A stretch of 64,000 nucleotides of DNA from Bacteroidia bacterium. Lineage in GTDB: Bacteria; Bacteroidota; Bacteroidia; UBA4408. Positions 1,682 through 12,813 of this stretch are shown here, piece by piece. The stretch is taken from the NCBI GenBank assembly GCA_035438985.1, contig DAORJK010000002.1:316442-380441 (forward strand), read 5' to 3'. Below the pieces are notes generated by a model that worked only from the letters and a program-made list of their open reading frames with translations, was not told where the DNA came from and did not search any database. Made by a program: the position numbers and the translations under genes. Numbering within the stretch: the stretch's first letter is position 1; each line of letters begins with the position of its first letter.

Positions 1682-1710
1682 AACGCACAGCTTAACGTTG
1701 TGCGTTTTTT
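1682..1710. terminator. Bidirectional rho-independent terminator shared by the convergent genes at 761-1660 and xdhC
   Basis: Hairpin 'AACGCACA-N-TGTGCGTT' flanked by an A-run upstream and a T-run downstream. The last codons of xdhC (KNAQR*) lie inside the stem. Confidence 0.6.
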
Positions 1711-2657
1711 ATTTTAATTATTTCGGCAGCAATGCTAATTGCAATTTCTTCAGGTGTTTCGCTCTTAATATCCAATCCTATTGGAGCGTGTAATTGAGAA
1801 ATTAGTTCAGAAGAAATTCCGTCTTGTAACAATTCATCCTGCAGTTTTTTTATTTTTGATTTGCTTCCCAGTACTCCTAAATAACAAAATTTCTTGTCTA
1901 TTAATTTTCTCAAAACCGCAGCATCTGTGCGATATCCATGTGTCATAACCACCAAGTAAATCATGCTGCCGGATGGAATTAACTTATCCATCTCATCAAA
2001 ATTTTTTACTTCTTCCAATCGATTAGCAAAGGTATTTTGACGCATGGTATTTAAATTTTTGCGTTCATCAATTACATGAATAAAAAAATCCAAGCGACTC
2101 ATTACTTCGCTTAAAGCAAAACTGCAATGCCCTCCGCCAATGATGTACAAAAAATTTTTATAGCCTAACTTTTCTTCATACTCCCATATTATTTCCGATT
2201 TTTTTTCGAAGCGATAATTCTGCTCCGGAATTAATTTTTCGTAAAAACAAATACCATCAGAGTTAATTTCTAATAATCCATTTTTTGTTTGTTGCAACGT
2301 ATTCAGGATGCTATGAATGTGTTTGGTATCTTTTTCTTGAATCTTGTATATAAAAATTGTTTGCTCGCCACTGCAAATCATACCACTTTGATTTCCCGGA
2401 GCCGATTTTTGATGTATTTGTTTTTTAGTAAGTGCTTTGTCTGGGAATACCTTTAATTTTTCTTTAGCAAGTTCTACTAATTTATGTTCCATGATACCAC
2501 CACCAATTGAACCATAAATTTCGGTGTATGTAACAGCCATTTTAAAACCTTGTCTTCCAGGGCTGCTTCCTTCACTTTCAAGTACACACATAAATACAAC
2601 CGGATTTTTTTTCTCCAATTGATCAGCGATAAACTGCCATAATTTTAGTTCTTTCAT
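1692..2657 (-). CDS. xdhC: Xanthine dehydrogenase accessory factor XdhC (XdhC/CoxI family, Mo-cofactor insertion)
   Basis: Translation shows the XdhC N-terminal domain and Rossmann domain ('YIIGGGHCSFALSEV...VIDER'). The ORF track starts at a TTG (2669); I prefer the ATG at 2657 ('MKELKLWQF'). Confidence 0.85.
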   Translation of the reverse strand: MKELKLWQFIADQLEKKNPVVFMCVLESEGSSPGRQGFKMAVTYTEIYGSIGGGIMEHKLVELAKEKLKVFPDKALTKKQIHQKSAPGNQSGMICSGEQTIFIYKIQEKDTKHIHSILNTLQQTKNGLLEINSDGICFYEKLIPEQNYRFEKKSEIIWEYEEKLGYKNFLYIIGGGHCSFALSEVMSRLDFFIHVIDERKNLNTMRQNTFANRLEEVKNFDEMDKLIPSGSMIYLVVMTHGYRTDAAVLRKLIDKKFCYLGVLGSKSKIKKLQDELLQDGISSELISQLHAPIGLDIKSETPEEIAISIAAEIIKIKNAQR

Positions 2658-2729
2658 CTTTAACAGCAAATAGCGAATCTAAAATTAAGTTTTCTATTTT
2701 TGTTGACAACGCAACAAGTGATTATTCCG

Positions 2730-4079
2730 ATGAAGTCAACAATATTCGCCATAAAAGGAAACAATATTCTTTGTCCGGATGGATTTAAAAAAGGTATACT
2801 GCTAATTGATGGAGCAAAAATAGTTGACTTTGTAGAGCAACTACCGGTGAACTATCAAGGAAAAATAATTGATGCTGCTGAACGAATTGTAATGCCGGGT
2901 TTAATCGATTGCCATGTGCACATCAATGAACCCGGACGCAGCCATTGGGAAGGCTTCGATACAGCCACAAAAGCAGCCGCTGCTGGGGGTATCACAAGCA
3001 TGGTCGAAATGCCGCTAAATGCTACCCCTGTTACAACTAACCGCAAAAATTTTGAAATTAAATTAAAAGCTGCCGCTAATAAATTGCATGTAAATTGTGG
3101 ATTTTGGGGAGGTGTAGTACCCGACAATGAGCATGAATTAAACGATTTACTCGAAAGCGGTGTGTTTGGATTAAAAGCATTTTTAACTCATTCGGGTATC
3201 GATGACTTTCCAAATACAACAGCATCGCATCTTCGCAATGCTTTATTAATTCTTAAGAGGCACAACAAACCATTGCTTGTACATTGTGAATTAGATGAAC
3301 CGCATCAAGATTCTCATCTGCTGGAAAAGTCACCAAACAGTTATCAGGCTTATTTAAAATCGCGACCAAAAAGTTGGGAAAACAAGGCGGTTCAATTAAT
3401 GATTGACTTATGCAGAGAGACGCAGTCAGCCGTACATTTAGTACATATTTCTTCAGCCGAAGCCTTGCCTTTAATTCGTGCAGCTAAGCTTGAAGGACTT
3501 CCGATTACAGCCGAAACTTGTCCACAGTATTTGTGCCTTTTTGCTGAAATGATTCCGGATGGAGCTACACAATATAAATGCGCACCACCCATTCGTGAAA
3601 AGCAAAACAACGAACTTTTGTGGGAAGCACTCAAAGATGGAACGCTTGATTTTATTGTAACCGATCATTCTCCTGCGCCTCCGGATATAAAGGAAACCAG
3701 CTCGGGTAATTTTGCAAAAGCATGGGGAGGTATTGCCGGATTACAATTTCTGTTGCCACTAATTTTTACTGCTGCAAATGAACGTGGATTTACTGTTGAA
3801 CAGCTAGCTAAATTAACTTCCCTGCATGTGGCACAATTTATTGGTATGGCTGAAACTAAAGGAAAGTTGCAAAAAGGATACGATGCAGATATTGTGTGTT
3901 GGGATCCAACAAAAAGTTTTACGGTTAAACAAGACTTAATTCACCACCGTCATAAAATTTGCCCTTATGAAGGAATGAACTTGTTGGGAGTTGTTGAACA
4001 ATGCTGGGTTGCAGGTGAATTGGTTTTCGATAAAGGAAATTTTTTACATTTGGAACAAGGGAAAATACTGCTTAAATAG
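2730..4079 (+). CDS. allB: Allantoinase (cyclic amidohydrolase)
   Basis: 'GLIDCHVHINEPGRSHWEGF' metal-binding motif and overall amidohydrolase/allantoinase layout, set within a purine-catabolism cluster. The ORF track starts at TTG 2700; the ATG at 2730 is more likely. Confidence 0.85.
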   Translation: MKSTIFAIKGNNILCPDGFKKGILLIDGAKIVDFVEQLPVNYQGKIIDAAERIVMPGLIDCHVHINEPGRSHWEGFDTATKAAAAGGITSMVEMPLNATPVTTNRKNFEIKLKAAANKLHVNCGFWGGVVPDNEHELNDLLESGVFGLKAFLTHSGIDDFPNTTASHLRNALLILKRHNKPLLVHCELDEPHQDSHLLEKSPNSYQAYLKSRPKSWENKAVQLMIDLCRETQSAVHLVHISSAEALPLIRAAKLEGLPITAETCPQYLCLFAEMIPDGATQYKCAPPIREKQNNELLWEALKDGTLDFIVTDHSPAPPDIKETSSGNFAKAWGGIAGLQFLLPLIFTAANERGFTVEQLAKLTSLHVAQFIGMAETKGKLQKGYDADIVCWDPTKSFTVKQDLIHHRHKICPYEGMNLLGVVEQCWVAGELVFDKGNFLHLEQGKILLK

Positions 4080-4132
4080 TAATACAGTTATTTTACCGGA
4101 TTGTAATTTAAAAGGGTTTAATTTGAATAAAT

Positions 4133-5164
4133 ATGAAAAGTGTTGTAGAAATAATAAAAGAGCAACCCAAATTTTGTAGCTATACAAATCTCGCTTCGGG
4201 ACGACTTGGAGCTGAAGCGCTGCTTTGCAGCGACGATTTTTTTGCTGAAATGCAAAATTTGGTCTTACCTGGAAGAGGGATATTTATTGCCGATAAATAC
4301 ACTGACCGCGGAAAGTGGATGGATGGATGGGAAAGCCGAAGAAAGCGAACTGAAGGTCACGATTGGTGCATTGTTAAATTGGCAACACATGGAATTATTC
4401 ACGGATTGGATATTGACACTAATTATTTTTTAGGCAACCATCCACCATTTGCTTCTGTCGAAGCTTGTACAATCAACACTAAACTGGAGGCCACATCATT
4501 GAATGATGATTCAATACAGTGGAAAGAAATTTTGCCGAAAGTAGCATTAGACGCTGGTAGCCAAAACTTTTTTGAAATTGCAGATAAATCAATTTATACT
4601 CATTTGAAGTTACACATATATCCGGATGGTGGAGTTGCTAGATTAAAAGTGTATGGGGAGGTTGTGAAAGATTGGAAAAGCCTTCAGCCAGATGAAATTG
4701 TTGATTTAGCCTCAGCACTAAATGGAGCAAAATCGGTGCTTTGCAACGATATGTTTTTTTCGCACATGGATAATTTACTCCTACCCGGACGTGGCATTAA
4801 CATGGGCGATGGTTGGGAAACCAAGCGAAACCGCACTCCCAATAATCGGGATTGGGTTATTGTTCGACTAGCCCATGCAGGTACAATAAAGCAAGTATTA
4901 ATTGATACCTGTCATTTTAAAGGAAATTATCCTGATGCTTGTATGATTGAAGGTACTACTATCAAACCGGAGGATGAATCAAAATTGACATCAACAGAAA
5001 TTAACTGGACTACAGTTTTGCCAAAAGTAAAATTGAATGCCGATTTTGAACATTATTTTGAAAAGGAAGTGGAAAATCATGGCCCTTTTACTCATGTACG
5101 ATTGTCGATTTTTCCTGATGGAGGAATTAGCCGCATGCGGTTATTTGGAAATGCTAAATTGTAG
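4133..5164 (+). CDS. alc: Allantoicase (two tandem allantoicase repeats)
   Basis: Two internal repeats, each with 'LLPGRGI...DGWE(S/T)(R/K)R.R...DW.IV(K/R)LA..G.I..(L/V)(D/I)DT..F.GN(H/Y)P'. Confidence 0.85.
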   Translation: MKSVVEIIKEQPKFCSYTNLASGRLGAEALLCSDDFFAEMQNLVLPGRGIFIADKYTDRGKWMDGWESRRKRTEGHDWCIVKLATHGIIHGLDIDTNYFLGNHPPFASVEACTINTKLEATSLNDDSIQWKEILPKVALDAGSQNFFEIADKSIYTHLKLHIYPDGGVARLKVYGEVVKDWKSLQPDEIVDLASALNGAKSVLCNDMFFSHMDNLLLPGRGINMGDGWETKRNRTPNNRDWVIVRLAHAGTIKQVLIDTCHFKGNYPDACMIEGTTIKPEDESKLTSTEINWTTVLPKVKLNADFEHYFEKEVENHGPFTHVRLSIFPDGGISRMRLFGNAKL

Positions 5165-5166
5165 AA

Positions 5167-5670
5167 ATGAAGTTAGAAGAATTTAATCAGCTATCGAAGG
5201 CAGTTGCAAGTAAGGAATTAGAGAAATGTTGCGGTGCCTCTAAATGGGTGAATTTGCTGGTCGAAAAAAGACCTTTTTTATCGATTGAAGAATTGAAAAT
5301 GGCTTCCGATGAATGCTGGCAGCAATGTGATACAAAAGACTATTTAGAAGCATTTAGTCATCATCCCAAAATAGGAGACCGCTCCTCCCTGGAGCAGAAA
5401 TTTGCCTCTACGCATAAATGGGCATCTAGCGAGCAATCAAGTGTTTTGGATGCTAACACTAATATAATTGATCAACTGGCTAAAGGAAATGAAGCATATG
5501 AACATAAATTTGGATTTATATTTATTGTTTGTGCAACCGGCAAATCAGCAGAAGAAATGCTCGACTTATTGACACAAAGATTAACCAATGCGCCGGAAAA
5601 AGAAATACAGATTGCCGCCGCAGAACAACAAAAAATAACCCATATTCGAATTAATAAACTACTGGAATGA
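5167..5670 (+). CDS. uraD: OHCU decarboxylase (2-oxo-4-hydroxy-4-carboxy-5-ureidoimidazoline decarboxylase)
   Basis: 'CCGASKWV' and 'AFSHHPKIGD' motifs typical of OHCU decarboxylase. Starts 3 nt after the allantoicase stop. Confidence 0.8.
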   Translation: MKLEEFNQLSKAVASKELEKCCGASKWVNLLVEKRPFLSIEELKMASDECWQQCDTKDYLEAFSHHPKIGDRSSLEQKFASTHKWASSEQSSVLDANTNIIDQLAKGNEAYEHKFGFIFIVCATGKSAEEMLDLLTQRLTNAPEKEIQIAAAEQQKITHIRINKLLE

Positions 5671-6005
5671 GTCAACTTACTACCCATATTTTAGATACCT
5701 GTTTAGGAAAACCTGCTGAGGGAATTGAAGTTCATCTCGCACAAAAAAATTCTGGAGAATGGAACGTTATTTCCAAAGGAATTTCAAACAAAGATGGAAG
5801 AATCACTGACTTACTTTCGGACAAAGTAATTTTAGCTCCGGGAATATACCGTCTTCAATTCGAAACTGGCGCATATTTTAAAAGACTTCAAACCACTGCA
5901 TTTTATCCTTCTGTTAGCATTGAATTTGAAATAAGCGATGCATCGCATTACCATGTTCCCTTGTTGTTAAACCCATATGGATATAGCACCTACAGAGGAT
6001 CTTGA
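5667..6005 (+). CDS. uraH: 5-hydroxyisourate hydrolase (transthyretin-like)
   Basis: 'LTTHILDT..GKPAEGI' N-terminus and C-terminal 'YRGS' signature. Overlaps uraD by 4 nt (ATGA). Confidence 0.88.
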   Translation: MSQLTTHILDTCLGKPAEGIEVHLAQKNSGEWNVISKGISNKDGRITDLLSDKVILAPGIYRLQFETGAYFKRLQTTAFYPSVSIEFEISDASHYHVPLLLNPYGYSTYRGS

Positions 6006-6033
6006 TGATTAATAAAAACAAAAAAACAATACG

Positions 6034-7464
6034 ATGAAGTTAACTATTCCTGAAAAAGAAAAGCTTGAGATATTAAATGAATTAAAATTAGCCAACCTTG
6101 CATTTCAAGCTGTGTATCCCGGCGATCTGCCACATCGTCAACCGGTACATACTGTTTATGGTGGAGCTAATTTGTTTAAAAGCGATAGTACCGTTAAAAT
6201 GGGAAAAGCTGCTTTCAAAAGTTTTATCAACAATGCCCCCAATTTCGCCATATTAGCCAAGGTGCTTGAATTAAAGGGTCATGCAAGTTTACCGGATACA
6301 GAAGCAGAGGTAATGGTTTTGGAGGAACGTTTGAATAAATTAAGCGATGAGCAGCGTAAATTAGAGCTGGCATGGCTTCCTTACACGGTTTATAATAAGA
6401 TTAAAGCCAAATTGCAAACTGAAGCAGTGGAAGATTTTAGAATCGATTTTGAGGATGGATTTGGAAATCGTCCAGATGATGAAGAAGATGCTACGGCTGT
6501 TACAGCAGCCACCGAATTAGCAAAAGGAATGGCAGATAAAACGATACCTCCATTTATTGGCATCCGTATTAAGCCATTTACCGAAGATTTAAAGTACCGC
6601 GGCGTTCGAACGCTCGATCTTTTTGTGAGTACCTTATTGGAAAAAAGTGGAGGAATATTGCCTCCAAATTTTGTGGTAATGTTACCCAAAGTTACGATTC
6701 CGGAACAAGTTGAAACCATCGTTAAATTTTTTGAATTACTTGAAAAGGCTCATCAATTGCCCGATGGTTCTCTTAAAATGGAGATGATGGTGGAAGCAAC
6801 ACAAGCAGTTATGGATGCAGATGGGAAAAATCCGCTTCTTAAATTAATTAGAGCCGGAAAGGGACGTTGCATTGCAGCGCATTTTGGAACCTATGATTAT
6901 ACAGCCTCCTGCAATATAACTGCACGTTATCAAACCATGGATCATCCGGTATGCGATTTTGCACATCACATGACCCGTGTTGCTTTGGGAGGTACCGGCA
7001 TCATGCTTAGCGATGGAGCAACCAATGTAATGCCGGTTGGTCCACACCGAGGTGATTCACTCACACTGGAACAGGAAATTGAAAATAGAAGGGTTGTACA
7101 CAACGCTTGGAAACTAGGGTATGGACACACCATGCATTCCTTGATTAATGGATTTTATCAGGGATGGGATTTAAATCCGGCTCAGTTTCCTATGCGCTAT
7201 GCTGCCACTTATACTTTCTTTTTGGAGAGTTATGAAGACGCTGCAGTACGCTTGCGAAATTTTGTTGAAAAGGCTGCTCAGGCAACACTTTCAGGAGATG
7301 TATTTGACGATGCAGCAACCGGACAAGGTTTACTGAATTATTTTTTACGTGCGTTAAATTGTGGTGCCATTACTGAAAAAGAAGTTCTTGCAACAGGTTT
7401 AACCATTGAAGAAATCCGTAGTCGCTCGTTTTATAAAATTTTAGTTGGCAGACGAAAAAAATAA
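6034..7464 (+). CDS. 476-aa CitE/HpcH-HpaI/malate-synthase-superfamily TIM-barrel-like protein; role in the purine cluster unknown
   Basis: Motifs line up with citrate-lyase-beta / malyl-CoA-lyase active-site elements: 'DFRIDFEDGFG' (D-x-E-D metal site), 'IGIRIKP', 'VVMLPKVTIPEQV', 'MEMMVEATQAV', 'GTYDYTAS'. A C-terminal extension of about 150 aa has no recognisable domain. Confidence 0.5.
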   Translation: MKLTIPEKEKLEILNELKLANLAFQAVYPGDLPHRQPVHTVYGGANLFKSDSTVKMGKAAFKSFINNAPNFAILAKVLELKGHASLPDTEAEVMVLEERLNKLSDEQRKLELAWLPYTVYNKIKAKLQTEAVEDFRIDFEDGFGNRPDDEEDATAVTAATELAKGMADKTIPPFIGIRIKPFTEDLKYRGVRTLDLFVSTLLEKSGGILPPNFVVMLPKVTIPEQVETIVKFFELLEKAHQLPDGSLKMEMMVEATQAVMDADGKNPLLKLIRAGKGRCIAAHFGTYDYTASCNITARYQTMDHPVCDFAHHMTRVALGGTGIMLSDGATNVMPVGPHRGDSLTLEQEIENRRVVHNAWKLGYGHTMHSLINGFYQGWDLNPAQFPMRYAATYTFFLESYEDAAVRLRNFVEKAAQATLSGDVFDDAATGQGLLNYFLRALNCGAITEKEVLATGLTIEEIRSRSFYKILVGRRKK

Positions 7465-7475
7465 TTCGCTTCTGA

Positions 7476-9725
7476 CTAAGCGTATAAATTCATCAGTATT
7501 TTTTCGGGAGTTAGGGGTGCACTTAATTCCATTGTATGCGAAGGGTTAAATGCCAACACTGCATTGCGCAGCGCAAAGTAAGCGCCAATACCATACATTA
7601 AAGGTGGTTCACCAACTGCTTTCGATTTAAAAATCGCTAGATCACTTCCTTTGGTTTTTAAAGGGTGGATTGTAATTTCTTTTGGAACCGAATAAATGTC
7701 GGGAACTTTATAGGTACTTAAAGCATTCGAAAGTAATTTACCCTCTTTGTTGTAAACAACTTCTTCCATTGTCATCCATCCAATTCCCTGCACTAAACCA
7801 CCTTCAATTTGACCTTTATCAATAAAGGGATTCATGCTTTCGCCATAATCGTGCACTATTTTTACAGCATCCGTTTCGTAGGTGCCACGCAAACAATCAA
7901 CTGTTACTATAAATAAAGCTGTTCCGTAAACATGGTAAGCAAATGGATGACCTTTTTCCTTTCCGGAATCAAAGTTTATTTCAGGAGTTGCATAGTGTGC
8001 ACTTTCAGAAAGGCTTTCGCGATTGAGGTAACAGGACATAACCAATTTATTCCAAGTAATTTCGGTCGGAACATTTTTATGCAGTACGCATTCATCCTTT
8101 AATTCAAGATCTTTTTCAAGTGCGCTTAATTCTATTGCAGCACGCTTTAGAAGACGTTTTTTTATTGCTTCGCAGGCAAGTTGTGTTGCTTTTCCATTTA
8201 AGTCGGCAGTCGCGCTTGCTGCTGAAGGAGAGGTGTTTGCAACACGGGTAGTATTGGTTGTTTCGACTTTTATTTTTGAGCTAGATATGGAGAATATATT
8301 GGCTGCAACCTGCAACATTTTTGTATTAACACCTTGCCCCATTTCAACAGCTCCCGTGCTAATTCCCACGCTACCATCCGTATACACATGCACCAAGGCA
8401 CGCGCCTGATTCATGAGTGTTTTAGTAAAAGAAATTCCAAAGCAAATGGGCATAATTGCCATCCCTTTTTTTATCAGCAAATTACTTTTATTAAACTCTT
8501 TAACTGCAGTTCTTTCTTTCTCAAATTGAAATAAATTAGTTGCTGTATCCCAACAATTATGAGCTTCACAACCATTTACAATTTGTCCGTAATGAAATAC
8601 ATTTCCATCTTGTAATAAATTTTTTTGCTGAATAACACTGGCATCTATTCCTAGATTTTCAGCTGCTTTAGCAATAGCTGCCTCAATTACAAACATTCCT
8701 TGTGGTCCTCCAAATCCACGGAAAGCGGTATTAGGAGGTAAGTTGGTCTTGCAACTAAAAGCAGTTACCTTAGTATGCGGAATACTATAACTGTTGGTAG
8801 CATGAAATAACGTGCGCTCGAGCACAGCCGGCGATAAATCAGCAGCAGCTCCTGCATTCTGATAAAAAGTAGCTTCATATGCTATTATTTTTAAATCGCT
8901 CGACAATCCTAATTTAAAATCGCTTGAATAAGGATGACGTTTTCCGGTCATACGCAAATCGGCCATTCTATCGAGTATGCATTTTACAGGACGCTTTAAT
9001 TTTTTGCAGGCAAGTGCTGCCATAACAGCCCAAGTAGTTGCTTGGTCCTCTTTACCTCCAAAGCCTCCACCTAAGCGTGTTACATCAACTTCAATTTTAT
9101 GCATGGGTACACCCAGCACTTTTGCTGCTGTTCGTTGCACTGCAGTGGGACCTTGAGTAGAAGAGTAAATTTTTATACTTCCATTTTCAAGTGGTAAGGC
9201 ATAGGCACCTTGTGTTTCAATATACAAATGTTCTTGTCCTCCCGACTCAGCAATGCCCTCAATTATATGCGTGCAATGTGACCATTGAGATGCAGTATCA
9301 CCAATTTGAAAAGTACGTGGTGGTACTATCAATTTATTATTTTTTGCAGCTTCCCTGGCATCCGTGATGGGCTCAAGTATTTCAATGTCAACTTGTATTA
9401 GTTTTGCTGCAGCTTCAGCTATTTCCTGACTTTTCGCAACAACTAACGCTATGGGCATTCCACAAAAATGGACCTCATGTTCAGCAAGTAATTCTTCATC
9501 CGGAATAATGCCGCCAATTTGATTTTCTCCGGGAATATCAAGATAAGTCAGCACGGCTTCAACTCCAGGATAAGATTTAGCTGCATCAATTGACAAATGG
9601 CGTATTTTTCCGTGTGCAATTTTTGAATCGTAGGCAACAGCATACAATGTTCCTTGTTGCAATGCAATGTCATCTGCATAAATGGATTCTCCTCGGGTAT
9701 GTGAAAAAGAGTCAATATTTTTCAT
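7476..9725 (-). CDS. xdhB: Xanthine dehydrogenase / aldehyde oxidase family molybdopterin-binding subunit
   Basis: a/b-hammerhead N-terminus, 'GGGFGGK' and 'FRGFGGPQG', and a 'GQG..TK' Mo-site motif across 749 aa. Confidence 0.88.
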   Translation of the reverse strand: MKNIDSFSHTRGESIYADDIALQQGTLYAVAYDSKIAHGKIRHLSIDAAKSYPGVEAVLTYLDIPGENQIGGIIPDEELLAEHEVHFCGMPIALVVAKSQEIAEAAAKLIQVDIEILEPITDAREAAKNNKLIVPPRTFQIGDTASQWSHCTHIIEGIAESGGQEHLYIETQGAYALPLENGSIKIYSSTQGPTAVQRTAAKVLGVPMHKIEVDVTRLGGGFGGKEDQATTWAVMAALACKKLKRPVKCILDRMADLRMTGKRHPYSSDFKLGLSSDLKIIAYEATFYQNAGAAADLSPAVLERTLFHATNSYSIPHTKVTAFSCKTNLPPNTAFRGFGGPQGMFVIEAAIAKAAENLGIDASVIQQKNLLQDGNVFHYGQIVNGCEAHNCWDTATNLFQFEKERTAVKEFNKSNLLIKKGMAIMPICFGISFTKTLMNQARALVHVYTDGSVGISTGAVEMGQGVNTKMLQVAANIFSISSSKIKVETTNTTRVANTSPSAASATADLNGKATQLACEAIKKRLLKRAAIELSALEKDLELKDECVLHKNVPTEITWNKLVMSCYLNRESLSESAHYATPEINFDSGKEKGHPFAYHVYGTALFIVTVDCLRGTYETDAVKIVHDYGESMNPFIDKGQIEGGLVQGIGWMTMEEVVYNKEGKLLSNALSTYKVPDIYSVPKEITIHPLKTKGSDLAIFKSKAVGEPPLMYGIGAYFALRNAVLAFNPSHTMELSAPLTPEKILMNLYA

Positions 9726-9913
9726 ACTTACACAACTAGATCTGTTTTAAAATTTGGTTTAATGCCAAGGATCAGACTGAATTTTTTGGATGTAAAAAAA
9801 AGATCTTAAAATCTGAAAAGAAAAATGGCTTATAGCAATTTCTCAAATCTGATTAAAAGTAGAAAAATAAATTGCGAATAAAAAGAAATGAGGAATGGAG
9901 TCGTATAAAAATT

Positions 9914-10705
9914 TTATAAATCAGCAGCTTTTGCAATAAGTTCAGCAACATCCAATACCTCGGTAGCCTGATCCTGTTCTTTAAGTTTAACACCGTCACG
10001 TAACATGGTCATGCAAAATGGACAGCCTGTTGCAATAACTTGAGGCTGTAATTCAAGTGCTTCTTCTGTACGTTCGATATTTACTTCTTTATTACCTTTT
10101 TCGGCTTCTTTAAACATTTGCGCACCACCTGCACCACAACATAATCCGTTGGCACGAGAACGTTTCATTTCGACTAAGGCAGCATCCAGTTTACCCAACA
10201 AAGCGCGTGGAGCTTCGTATACATCATTTCCTCTACCTAAATAGCAGGGATCGTGAAAGGTTATTTTCTTACCTGAAAAATTTCCTCCTTCTACTTTGAT
10301 TCTTCCGGAGTCTAACAATTGCTGAATTAATTGAGTGTGATGGATTACTTCAAAGTTTCCTCCAAGTTCAGGGTATTCATTTTTTAAGGTATTAAAGCAA
10401 TGCGGACAACCGGTAACTATTTTTTTTACTTCATAACCATTTAATAGTTGAATGTTGGTCATTGCCTGCATTTGAAATAAAAATTCGTTTCCTGCTCTTT
10501 TTGCTGGATCCCCGGTACAGGATTCTTCGGTTCCTAATACCGCAAATTTTACCTCGGCTTTTGTTAAAATGCGAACAATTGCTTTGGTAATTTTTTTTGC
10601 TCTGTCGTCAAAACTACCTGCGCAACCTACCCAAAATAAAATTTCAGGAACTTCTCCTTTAGCAAGGCATTCAGCCATAGTTGGTACTACTAGTTCTTTC
10701 TCCAT
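9914..10705 (-). CDS. HdrD/GlpC/LutA-like (Fe-S)-binding protein with two CCG cysteine-rich domains
   Basis: Two CCG domains: 'VGCAGSFDD...ESCTGDP...GCPHC' and 'HDPCY...LCCGAGG...GCPFC'. Confidence 0.8.
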   Translation of the reverse strand: MEKELVVPTMAECLAKGEVPEILFWVGCAGSFDDRAKKITKAIVRILTKAEVKFAVLGTEESCTGDPAKRAGNEFLFQMQAMTNIQLLNGYEVKKIVTGCPHCFNTLKNEYPELGGNFEVIHHTQLIQQLLDSGRIKVEGGNFSGKKITFHDPCYLGRGNDVYEAPRALLGKLDAALVEMKRSRANGLCCGAGGAQMFKEAEKGNKEVNIERTEEALELQPQVIATGCPFCMTMLRDGVKLKEQDQATEVLDVAELIAKAADL

Positions 10706-10706
10706 G

Positions 10707-11453
10707 TTAGTTTATTTCAAAATCACAGTTTAGCGTAATTGATGCTGTTTTTCGTTTTGAAGAGGTATTAAAAGTACCTCCCCAGGAATAATCTTCTCCT
10801 GCATTTTGTCCTACTATTTGAAAGACTCCCATGCTTGCATTTTTTAAATTGCCCAGTTTATTTCCAGCGTTTTCGGCAATGCTTTGTGCTCTGCTGCGAG
10901 CATCCTTTGTAGCTTCCGAAATCATTTCCACTTTTAAGGCAGCTAATTTAGTGTAATAGTAACGCGGATTTTCGGAGTAGAATTCAATTCCCTGATTAAT
11001 TAATTCGGTTACTTCTCGCGAAAGATTTTCTATTTTTTCTACTTCCTTTGATTCAATGGTGATGCTTTGATTTAATGTATACCCAATGAATTTTCGTCCG
11101 GTTAACCGACCTTCATTGTCAAATAATTCATCAAAATTTTTAGAAATTGTAACTGAAGAAAAAATAACTTCCTTTTCACTTACACCTTTGGATGTGAAGT
11201 ATTTTTGAATTAATTCGCGATCGTTGTTAAGCAACTGATATGCTTGTTTTAATTCAAAAGAGGAGCGGCTAAAACTACCTGTCCAAACGACCAGATCGGA
11301 AACAAAATCGCGAGAACCCAAACCGGTTACTGAAATTTTTTGTGTGTAATTATTCCTGTTTTTAAAGGCACTTCCTAAAATTGCTGCTGCACACACAACT
11401 GCTAATGCAATAAGAAAAGTAGAGATGTACTTTTTATTTTCCATGTTATTCAT
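10707..11453 (-). CDS. SIMPL (DUF541, BP26/YggE-like) domain protein, membrane-anchored and periplasm-facing
   Basis: N-terminal TM 'ISTFLIALAVVCAAAILG' followed by SIMPL-like domain architecture. Overlaps the upstream gene by 8 nt and sits 1 nt from the downstream gene. Confidence 0.6.
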   Translation of the reverse strand: MNNMENKKYISTFLIALAVVCAAAILGSAFKNRNNYTQKISVTGLGSRDFVSDLVVWTGSFSRSSFELKQAYQLLNNDRELIQKYFTSKGVSEKEVIFSSVTISKNFDELFDNEGRLTGRKFIGYTLNQSITIESKEVEKIENLSREVTELINQGIEFYSENPRYYYTKLAALKVEMISEATKDARSRAQSIAENAGNKLGNLKNASMGVFQIVGQNAGEDYSWGGTFNTSSKRKTASITLNCDFEIN

Positions 11454-12813
11454 TTTTCCAATTTAATCGATCGGCCGGTGAAAATTGCCAAGGTGCTCCA
11501 TTGTTTTCAATATTGGTAAACATAGCATTTAATGCAGCGGGAGCATCCGATTGCTCCATAACGAGGTATCTCCGTAAATCGATAATGATTGAAAGAGGAT
11601 CAATATTAATCGGACAAGATTCAGTACACGCATTACACGTGGTGCATGCCCAAAGTTCTTCAGCAGTGATATAGTCTCCAACTAAAGCTTTTGAATCGGA
11701 ATAATTTACTCCATTTTTATCTATTCCTTTTCCAAGTTCTTCCATACGGTCGCGTGTATCCATCATAATTTTACGTGGCGACAAAAGTTTACCGGTTTGA
11801 TTAGCCGGACAATTACTCGTGCAACGCCCGCATTCTGTGCAACTGTAAGCGTCCATTAATTGTTTCCAACTTAAATCAGGAACATCTTTTGCTCCGAATT
11901 TAGCAGGTGGCGCATCGCTAACAGGAGGCACTGCGCTGGGATCAAGCATTAATTTTACTTCATTGGTAACTGATTCAAGATTGGAGAATTTTCCTTTAGG
12001 TTTTAAATTAGAATAAAATACAGTTGGGAATGCAAGTAAAATATGGAAGTGTTTGGAATAGGGGATGTAATTTAAAAAGGCAATAATTCCAAGTATATGA
12101 AACCACCAACAAACGCGTTCAATGTAATGCAATGCTAAAGGATTGCTCGGTAAAAATCCAGTTAAATAGGCGCTTACAGGAAAATACAGTCCTTTTCCAG
12201 CTTGACTTTGTTCACCAAATATTTTAGTCGCAGCTTCGGCAAATTCGGGCAATAGAATGTCCCCGCTTAATTTACCATAGCTCATCATAACTCCATCGGC
12301 AGCATTCATAATTAAAAATGCCGACATCAATACAATTTCGGTAGTCAATATTATTGCAGCATCATTTCTGGGCCAACCTTCTAACTCTTTATTCATAAAG
12401 CGTTTTAGTTTCAGCACATACCTGCGAATGAGGAATATAGCACAACCTAAAATTACAAGTAATGCAAGGAATTCGAACGAGGCAATTAACAAGTAATAAA
12501 AGTACCCCATAAATGCAAAAATGCGATGCGTACCAAAAATGCCATCAATAATTATTTCGAGTACTTCAATGTTAATTATGATAAATCCTAGATACACAAA
12601 TATGTGCAAGATACCGGCAACCGGTCGTACTACCATTTTACTCTGACCTATGGCAACTTTTGCCATCAATTTCCATCGTTCATTCAAATTGTCGGAAATA
12701 TCTAAAGCTCTGCCTAGCAGAATATTTCTTCTTATTTTCTGAGCATTTCGGGCAAACCAATAAATACCACCTGCCAGAAGCACACAAAATATCAGGTTAT
12801 CTATCCAATTCAT
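11446..12813 (-). CDS. Membrane-bound Fe-S oxidoreductase: an N-terminal polytopic (NarI/HdrE/DsrM-like, His-rich) domain fused to a 2x[4Fe-4S] ferredoxin domain
   Basis: About 5 predicted TM helices with conserved His, then 'CTECGRCTSNCP' and 'CTTCNACTESCP' cluster motifs. Confidence 0.8.
   Translation of the reverse strand: MNWIDNLIFCVLLAGGIYWFARNAQKIRRNILLGRALDISDNLNERWKLMAKVAIGQSKMVVRPVAGILHIFVYLGFIIINIEVLEIIIDGIFGTHRIFAFMGYFYYLLIASFEFLALLVILGCAIFLIRRYVLKLKRFMNKELEGWPRNDAAIILTTEIVLMSAFLIMNAADGVMMSYGKLSGDILLPEFAEAATKIFGEQSQAGKGLYFPVSAYLTGFLPSNPLALHYIERVCWWFHILGIIAFLNYIPYSKHFHILLAFPTVFYSNLKPKGKFSNLESVTNEVKLMLDPSAVPPVSDAPPAKFGAKDVPDLSWKQLMDAYSCTECGRCTSNCPANQTGKLLSPRKIMMDTRDRMEELGKGIDKNGVNYSDSKALVGDYITAEELWACTTCNACTESCPINIDPLSIIIDLRRYLVMEQSDAPAALNAMFTNIENNGAPWQFSPADRLNWKNE

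Follow-up and report, generated by a model that had tools for sequence, protein, structure and literature searches.

A ureide-pathway operon between xdhC and an orphan xdhB

The stretch of DNA analysed here, hereafter the window, comprises 64,000 nucleotides of contig DAORJK010000002.1 (assembly GCA_035438985.1) from an uncultured Bacteroidota bacterium and carries a compact set of purine-catabolism genes, among them a gene of the DUF6986 family whose product we consider a candidate ureidoglycolate lyase. The DNA has a guanine-plus-cytosine fraction of ~0.36 and encodes Bacteroidota type IX secretion and gliding genes, LptD_2 and Por_Secre_tail proteins. The genes of the cluster and the spacer that adjoins them are as follows.

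1692-2669, minus strand: xdhC, Mo-cofactor insertion chaperone for xanthine dehydrogenase (XDH); Pfam XdhC_C 7e-36, XdhC_CoxI 7e-11
2700-4079, plus strand: allB, allantoinase (allantoin to allantoate); TIGR03178, 532 bits against a cutoff of 358
4133-5164, plus strand: alc, allantoicase (allantoate to ureidoglycolate and urea); TIGR02961, 435 bits against a cutoff of 278
5167-5670, plus strand: uraD, 2-oxo-4-hydroxy-4-carboxy-5-ureidoimidazoline (OHCU) decarboxylase; TIGR03180, 187 bits against a cutoff of 139
5667-6005, plus strand: hiuH, 5-hydroxyisourate hydrolase; TIGR02962, 143 bits against a cutoff of 87
6034-7464, plus strand: DUF6986 protein, 476 aa, final gene of the operon; Pfam PF22484, 628.2 bits against a cutoff of 27
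7476-9725, minus strand: xdhB, orphan molybdopterin subunit of xanthine dehydrogenase; Ald_Xan_dh_C, MoCoBD_1 and MoCoBD_2 domains
9726-9913, no strand: AT-rich spacer of 188 bp at the site of xdhA in other genomes; no xdhA remnant on reading the sequence or by tblastn

The products of allB, alc, uraD and hiuH each score above their NCBIfam equivalog cutoffs, as expected of a ureide-pathway operon. hiuH overlaps uraD by 4 bases, and its product has the C-terminus YRGS. The XdhB protein scores 786 bits on TIGR02965, slightly under the cutoff of 849.5. The ureide operon stands between xdhC, which is divergent from it and keeps this position in the related loci L001, L002, L091 and L095, and xdhB, which is convergent with it and has no xdhA upstream. 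Database gene calls give slightly later starts for allB (449 aa) and xdhC (321 aa). An initial annotation, made from the DNA letters, had listed xdhC, allantoinase, allantoicase, OHCU decarboxylase, 5-hydroxyisourate hydrolase and an XdhB-like subunit here, and all six were found where it placed them, with strong family matches. It had left the protein at 6034-7464 unassigned; that protein is already classified in Pfam as DUF6986.

Ratios of nonsynonymous to synonymous substitution rates (dN/dS) were computed between the window and L091, where dS is ~0.6 and unsaturated (0.59 for xdhB). The values are 0.05 for xdhC, 0.06 for alc, 0.13 for uraD, 0.15 for hiuH and 0.059 for xdhB, and the DUF6986 gene is the most constrained of the operon (0.03).

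A Pfam scan of every open reading frame (ORF) of at least 100 aa across the 64 kb returned no match to the XdhA domains Fer2, Fer2_2, FAD_binding_5 or CO_deh_flav_C, to the uricase families Uricase (Uox/PucL, PF01014), Urate_ox_N (PuuD, PF06181) or FAD_binding_3 (HpxO-type FAD monooxygenase), or to Ureidogly_lyase (AllA, PF04115). Related XdhA and PuuD proteins used as tblastn queries against the window likewise found nothing (best E = 0.86; PuuD E above 5). The initial annotation had reported XdhA subunits, uricase and AllA to be missing near the cluster, and this holds for the whole window.

DUF6986 genes accompany the ureide pathway

The match of the window protein to PF22484 spans model positions 3-408 of 408, making it a full-length member. 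The family is large (more than 8000 word-index hits; 582 clusters at 50% identity with E < 1e-30) and is present in at least 595 GTDB species-representative genomes from many phyla, including Bacteroidota, Acidobacteriota, Melainabacteria, Myxococcota, SAR324 and Marinimicrobia. Its database names are inconsistent, ranging over phosphoenolpyruvate kinase, citrate lyase beta subunit and aldolase/citrate lyase family, and our literature search found no paper mentioning DUF6986 or tying the family to ureide catabolism.

Gene neighbourhoods were surveyed gene by gene in 83 loci, made up of 80 fetched DUF6986-encoding genome loci, the window, L001 and L002. Ureide genes lie near DUF6986 in ~67 of the 83, and many of the remaining loci are short contigs. 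The individual neighbours are hiuH (67/83 loci), uraD (65/83), allB (52/83), alc (46/83) and the AllC plus AllE route (9-10/83), and a route to (S)-ureidoglycolate is encoded in at least 55 loci. AllA was detected in none of the 83 (tblastn with E. coli AllA; no phmmer match at E <= 10), and canonical malate synthase was also found in none. Neither Gcl nor AllD was convincingly found in these loci; the single hits to each, only 25% and 21% identical, were dropped as orthologues.

Conversion of ureidoglycolate to glyoxylate and urea is the sole step of these operons without an assigned gene. DUF6986 occupies the operon niche of AllA (E. coli b0505), beside allantoicase or AllC plus AllE, and the reaction we propose for it is the same. 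In contrast, the AllA fold and sequence (cupin fold, PF04115) are unrelated to those of DUF6986.

Three further gene associations were seen in the survey. In seven Acidobacteriota loci (L061, L062, L065, L070, L074, L075 and L078), the gene directly after DUF6986 is in every case on the same strand and encodes a ~555 aa protein with a weak Peptidase_M49 match, and this pair (for example, L075:11456-13141) occurs with or without a ureide operon alongside. UreF-type urease accessory genes stand directly upstream of DUF6986 in four loci. The Flavobacterium loci L042-L049 and L059 carry MoaA, MoaC, MoaE, MoeA, MoeB-like and TauE-family genes 5-8 kb upstream of DUF6986, near the ureide/XDH cluster.

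A predicted CitE-type barrel with a conserved glyoxylate-Mg site

An AlphaFold2 model of DUF6986, built with a 67-sequence alignment, reached a predicted local distance difference test score (pLDDT) of 96.6 and a predicted template modelling score (pTM) of 0.94. The predicted structure has the TIM-barrel fold of CitE, malyl-CoA lyase (MCL) and malate synthase and superposes on solved members of that group, with which Foldseek agrees at 12-18% identity. Similarly, a DUF6986 profile search of PDB sequences retrieved MCL at 6.6e-6, a CitE-like protein at 1.2e-5 and malate synthases at ~2e-3. Scores against Pfam HpcH_HpaI (PF03328, 24.3 versus 25 bits) and MS_TIM-barrel (PF01274, 19.8 versus 26.4 bits) both fall below threshold; DUF6986 is a relative within the superfamily, not a member of either family.

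Alignment with E. coli AceB by hhalign (probability 91%) pairs E254 of DUF6986 with E250, D288 with D278, W378 with Trp365 and T286 with Arg276, and E254 and D288 also align with the EVIIES and GAADF motifs of MCL. E250 and D278 are the Mg ligands of AceB. R178, E254, D288, W378, D379, D425 and D426 are invariant or nearly so in DUF6986, with R178 conserved in at least 90% of alignment A1. The Glu and Asp ligands of Mg2+ and the glyoxylate-site Arg that characterize the superfamily are all present.

Among solved structures, the Mg ligands and the W-x-x-H-P-x-Q motif of MCL (PDB 4l9y, 5ugr and 4l7z) and of human CLYBL (5vxc) align with DUF6986. Enzymes of the MCL/CLYBL type cleave a 2-hydroxy acid and release glyoxylate. 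DUF6986 differs from them in sequence (identity only 15-16%), in length (476 aa versus ~320) and in an extra helical N-terminal region of ~130 residues. Unlike MCL, most DUF6986 genes stand in ureide operons with no acyl-CoA enzymes nearby, the exception being a derived clade of four members described below.

Residue 381 of the window protein is Asn, as in other Bacteroidota members, at the position of the His of W-x-x-H-P found in ~90% of the family and in CitE, MCL and malate synthase. The four-member clade also has Asn at this position.

DUF6986 as a candidate ureidoglycolate lyase

Gene context, fold, the conserved glyoxylate-Mg site and a published precedent make a non-orthologous ureidoglycolate lyase (EC 4.3.2.3), replacing AllA, the best-supported reading of DUF6986. 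This candidate assignment seems to us evenly poised between right and wrong. The initial annotation had proposed that the missing functions are either encoded elsewhere or performed by the unassigned protein. The first option fits XdhA, as seen in a relative; the second fails for uricase and, for ureidoglycolate lyase, has become the reading favoured here.

Ureidoglycolate, HOOC-CH(OH)-NH-CO-NH2, is isosteric with malyl-CoA, HOOC-CH(OH)-CH2-CO-SCoA, the respective leaving groups being -NH-CO-NH2 and -CH2-CO-SCoA. In the mechanism that we propose, Mg2+ bound by E254 and D288 would chelate the carboxylate and C2-hydroxyl of (S)-ureidoglycolate, R178 would polarise the substrate, and an invariant acid/base (D425/D426 or D379) would deprotonate the hydroxyl. 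Cleavage of the C-N bond would then yield glyoxylate and urea, with urea expelled as MCL expels the acetyl-CoA enolate, an equivalent, for a C-N bond, of the retro-Claisen reaction that cleaves malyl-CoA.

The precedent comes from Metazoa, where the malate-synthase-like protein of zebrafish, DrMSL/UGL, is the ureidoglycolate lyase (Dembech et al., PNAS 2023, PMC10120013). DrMSL was discovered through its association with allantoicase and uricase genes; it has kept the glyoxylate site and lost the acetyl-CoA site, malate synthase and lyase activities are mutually exclusive, and the malate-synthase-like lyases were reported as a eukaryote-only group (PMC10120013). The likeness to DUF6986 lies in the retained glyoxylate-binding core. 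In contrast, DrMSL belongs to the malate synthase A orthogroup, whereas DUF6986 falls outside it (the PF01274 score given above) and is structurally closer to CitE, MCL and CLYBL. DrMSL is also metal-independent, with Trp365 replaced by Met, whereas in DUF6986 the Trp (W378) and the two Mg ligands are retained. Of the two positions substituted in the metazoan lyase, Arg276 and Trp365, the first is Thr in DUF6986 (T286), but the second is retained. As DUF6986 lies outside the DrMSL orthogroup, a shared function would therefore be convergent and reflect an independent recruitment.

Several considerations weigh against the lyase assignment. To our knowledge, all characterised members of the superfamily except the animal enzyme use acyl-CoA, and the animal lyase is metal-independent, in contrast to the invariant Mg ligands of DUF6986. 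Ureidoglycolate decays spontaneously, and a dedicated lyase is not strictly needed. T286 was considered as a lyase signature and dropped, being common to CitE-type lyases and to the four-member clade. The operon of that clade is of the ethylmalonyl-CoA type and calls for a (beta-methyl)malyl-CoA lyase, so the DUF6986 family can probably use acyl-CoA, and its ureide-linked members might simply condense glyoxylate with acetyl-CoA.

The last point is the core of the alternative that survives best, in which DUF6986 is a divergent malate synthase or MCL and the glyoxylate end product is condensed with acetyl-CoA, detoxified and assimilated. The breakdown of ureidoglycolate would in that case be spontaneous, or fall to allantoicase or to the product of a gene elsewhere. 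There is a parallel in aceB, which consumes glyoxylate in some ureide clusters. All close structural relatives of DUF6986 are enzymes of acyl-CoA and glyoxylate or an oxo acid, its Mg-glyoxylate site and candidate catalytic Asp (D425/D426) are conserved, and no other glyoxylate-consuming enzyme was found in the 83 loci. On the other hand, the ureidoglycolate step would be left without a gene in the at least 55 loci that make ureidoglycolate, and in the published pair of enzymes one activity excludes the other (PMC10120013). Overall, we regard a glyoxylate-consuming DUF6986 as unlikely, while a serious contender.

The four-member clade bears on both readings. In L067:8147-14458, L076:3294-11043, L086:9986-16414 and L088:3567-8629, from Accumulibacter and two other proteobacterial-type metagenome-assembled genomes (MAGs), DUF6986 heads an operon; next, with gaps of 33-61 bp, come the genes of an acyl-CoA dehydrogenase (558 aa), mesaconyl-CoA hydratase, a B12-dependent acyl-CoA mutase and MeaB. 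None of these four operons contains a CitE-type (beta-methyl)malyl-CoA lyase, and it is because their context needs one that acyl-CoA chemistry in the family is probable, as the glyoxylate-consumer alternative would have it. The four proteins are 54-56% identical to the window protein and form a single long-branched clade among ureide-linked lineages. Of 159 columns with at least 95% conservation among ureide-linked proteins, 10 have replacements that are fixed in, and specific to, this clade; those near active-site motifs are F135N, H283I, M302H, N331T, H365N and D422N, with the Mg-glyoxylate core unchanged and R178 kept in all four. A monophyletic, long-branched clade with its own replacements suggests a co-substrate different from that of the ureide-linked majority, against the glyoxylate-consumer alternative. 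We read the replacements as an exchange of the leaving group, the scaffold that releases glyoxylate being common to both, with lineage drift also possible in a monophyletic set of four. On this reading, glyoxylate chemistry gains support throughout the family, and the ureide-linked majority more likely has another co-substrate.

Extended to the whole family, the lyase assignment would make DUF6986 a new and widespread bacterial ureidoglycolate lyase family that arose from a CitE/MCL scaffold independently of the animal lyase and displaced AllA, with a sister clade that cleaves (beta-methyl)malyl-CoA; we hold this broader proposal tentatively, at a little short of even. In either form, the proposal gives a large domain-of-unknown-function family a concrete and cheaply testable function. 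If it is true, the last step of purine-nitrogen recycling would be closed in Bacteroidota, Acidobacteriota and other abundant bacteria of soil, freshwater and wastewater, the misleading names phosphoenolpyruvate kinase and citrate lyase beta subunit would be corrected, and the output of urea and glyoxylate from purines could be better reconstructed. It would also represent a second independent conversion of the malate-synthase/CitE barrel into a ureidoglycolate lyase and, if malyl-CoA cleavage by the sister clade is true as well, a natural example of switching between C-N and C-C lyase chemistry on one scaffold.

An old split of xdhA and xdhB, as seen in a relative

Aligned with bovine XDH (E = 6e-168), the window XdhB conserves Gln767, Glu802, Arg880, Phe914, Phe1009, Thr1010 and Glu1261 (bovine numbering), with E226, R304, F338 and E706 of the window protein among the conserved catalytic positions. 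Glu802 and Arg880 tell xanthine dehydrogenases from aldehyde oxidases. The window thus shares with canonical xdhABC (Rhodobacter capsulatus type, PDB 1jro) the domains and catalytic residues of the Mo subunit, as well as the XdhC chaperone. Unlike the canonical arrangement, no xdhA adjoins xdhB in the window, the two genes lying ~180 kb apart in a relative, and the ureide operon comes between xdhC and xdhB.

Wherever both genes were detected in the survey, xdhA adjoins xdhB (21/21 loci). xdhB stands alone in two of the 83 loci, L023, where the copy is cut by the locus edge, and the window, which is the only untruncated case. Several Bacteroidota loci have the order xdhC< allB> alc> (puuD>) uraD> hiuH> DUF6986> xdhB< xdhA< gda<, which is the window layout with xdhA, gda and puuD added. 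The window arrangement was found in independent contigs from NCBI (DAORJD010000004.1, MAG GCA_035438825.1), JGI (a 225 kb contig) and Logan, and the same junction in these assemblies and in relatives rules out misassembly as the source of the orphan xdhB. Beyond the window, the orphan arrangement Fer4-SIMPL-CCG-xdhB is present in L091 and L128 (XdhB 93% identical) and in L092 and L095 (80%). A decaying pseudogene is likewise ruled out by the dN/dS of 0.059 and the intact catalytic residues, and by every available test of this kind the gene appears functional. The orphan xdhB of the window clade is old, conserved and under purifying selection.

The whereabouts of xdhA can be followed in relatives. 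L093 (XdhB 76% identical) retains a canonical xdhA-xdhB pair, flanked by AA_permease, NTPase_1, an unassigned 346 aa gene and MOSC. In the relative GCA_963853145.1, the 1.04 Mb contig CAWKVP010000001.1 bears the ureide cluster with orphan xdhB at ~252 kb; at 433 kb, 179 kb from that cluster, it has an orphan xdhA that is intact. This xdhA has the MOSC/NTPase_1/permease flank of L093, no xdhB fragment follows it, and its product has the standard Fer2, Fer2_2, FAD_binding_5 and CO_deh_flav_C architecture; a second lineage has the same orphan-xdhA locus, with intact Fe-S motifs and no xdhB fragment. Because a relative with the same orphan xdhB carries an intact xdhA elsewhere, the XdhA part of the gap counts as a split cluster, the outcome that the initial annotation had foreseen should XdhA be encoded elsewhere. 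On the showing of that relative, we read the missing XdhA of the window as a commonplace split of xdhAB, if an old and tidy one. The ancestral xdhA-xdhB pair would have come apart in the window clade, with xdhA staying at its old MOSC/NTPase_1/permease-flanked locus, ~180 kb away as seen in the relative, and xdhB now beside the ureide genes; XDH would then be assembled from separately encoded subunits.

By synteny, xdhA of the window species would sit off the 222 kb contig. Two insensitive searches bear on it: none of the top 120 homologues of L093 XdhA was more than 70% identical to the orphan XdhA of the relative, and a metagenome scan for XdhA gave no match from the window's metagenomes. 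MAG incompleteness or real loss may lie behind the missing XdhA and uricase of the window's own MAG, and real loss would count against a scattered gene set. In its fullest form, loss would mean that the upstream half of the pathway is decaying, with xdhA and uricase gone, xdhB, xdhC, hiuH and uraD left as remnants, and only imported allantoin used. Consistent with this, xdhA was found neither in the window nor in the wider, insensitive searches, uricase is missing from the window, and in L001, the nearest relative, xdhB is gone from the locus as well. However, the four supposed remnants are intact, with dN/dS of 0.05-0.15 at dS ~0.6, the orphan arrangement is undisrupted down to 80% XdhB identity, and a relative that shares the arrangement still has an intact xdhA elsewhere, all of which makes decay very improbable.

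Use by the orphan XdhB of the Fer4-dicluster (11446-12813) and CCG-domain (9914-10705) proteins as electron-transfer partners instead of XdhA is scarcely credible: their genes share the strand of xdhB, Fer4-SIMPL-CCG-xdhB synteny is kept in L091, L092, L095 and L128 and the CCG-xdhB gap narrows to only 61 bp in L092, but among the 83 loci they are tied to xdhB in the window only, they lie within a housekeeping block (ADK-Obg-LptD-amidase-MlaD) with the SIMPL gene between them, and a genome with the same arrangement has an intact orphan xdhA.

The segment concerned, 9914-12813 of the window, lies immediately upstream of the orphan xdhB and is a conserved block that encodes, all on the same strand, a 455-aa 4Fe-4S dicluster protein, a SIMPL protein and a CCG-domain protein. 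The start of the SIMPL gene overlaps the end of its upstream gene by 8 bases, and the gap between the CCG gene and xdhB is 188 bp in the window. The block is probably housekeeping, though it may be co-transcribed with xdhB.

Genes for a MOSC protein, an NTPase_1 protein and a 334-346 aa protein of no Pfam family adjoin xdhA with or without xdhB (L093:6648-8506; L094:8080-9926; L125:8083-9926; L002:19133-20725), and could themselves be accessory to XDH or to purine salvage. At L002:15324-17577 (MAG GCA_016721305.1), the xdhB downstream of xdhA is broken into a pair of overlapping ORFs (347 and 414 aa), either through a frameshift error or as a pseudogene.

Uricase and the wider gene set

A PuuD-type uricase (Urate_ox_N) is encoded in or beside the operon in 42-43 of the 83 DUF6986 loci, and a classical Uricase in 6/83. 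The close relative L002 has a PuuD-type uricase with a CxxCH motif at the locus, and puuD directly follows the DUF6986 gene in the sister genomes L002, L010 and L011; it is absent from the locus in the clade that the window and L001 form. The suggestion that the protein at 6034-7464 replaces uricase did not hold up: DUF6986 stands beside PuuD or Uox in ~49/83 loci and, co-occurring with uricases, is therefore not their substitute, which rules it out as a novel uricase. As a substitute for XdhA it is ruled out by its co-occurrence with XdhA in many loci.

The only substrates of HiuH and UraD known to us come from urate oxidation. Because hiuH and uraD are under constraint and depend on such substrates, a uricase encoded elsewhere is the economical inference. 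As in the related genomes, it would presumably be of the PuuD type, and scatter around the genome, as for XdhA, is the most likely reason for its absence here. Ordinary scatter of this kind gives the XDH and uricase gaps little consequence.

We can best explain the locus as a functioning ureide-pathway operon, allB-alc-uraD-hiuH-DUF6986, with divergent xdhC and convergent xdhB, in an uncultured Bacteroidota bacterium whose purine-catabolic genes are dispersed over the genome. Taken jointly in all its parts, this explanation has in our judgement about an even chance of being correct.

A conserved gene pair beside xdhC

On the other side of xdhC, a 138-aa lipoprotein-like ORF at 285-701 has an LSSC lipobox, a C-x4-CH motif (CATTGCH) and no Pfam match; it is followed at 761-1660 by the gene of a DUF5777 membrane beta-barrel. 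Considered together as an alternative uricase, the two were set aside, being absent as a pair from L001 and almost all other DUF6986 loci; they are kept together in L091, L092 and L095.

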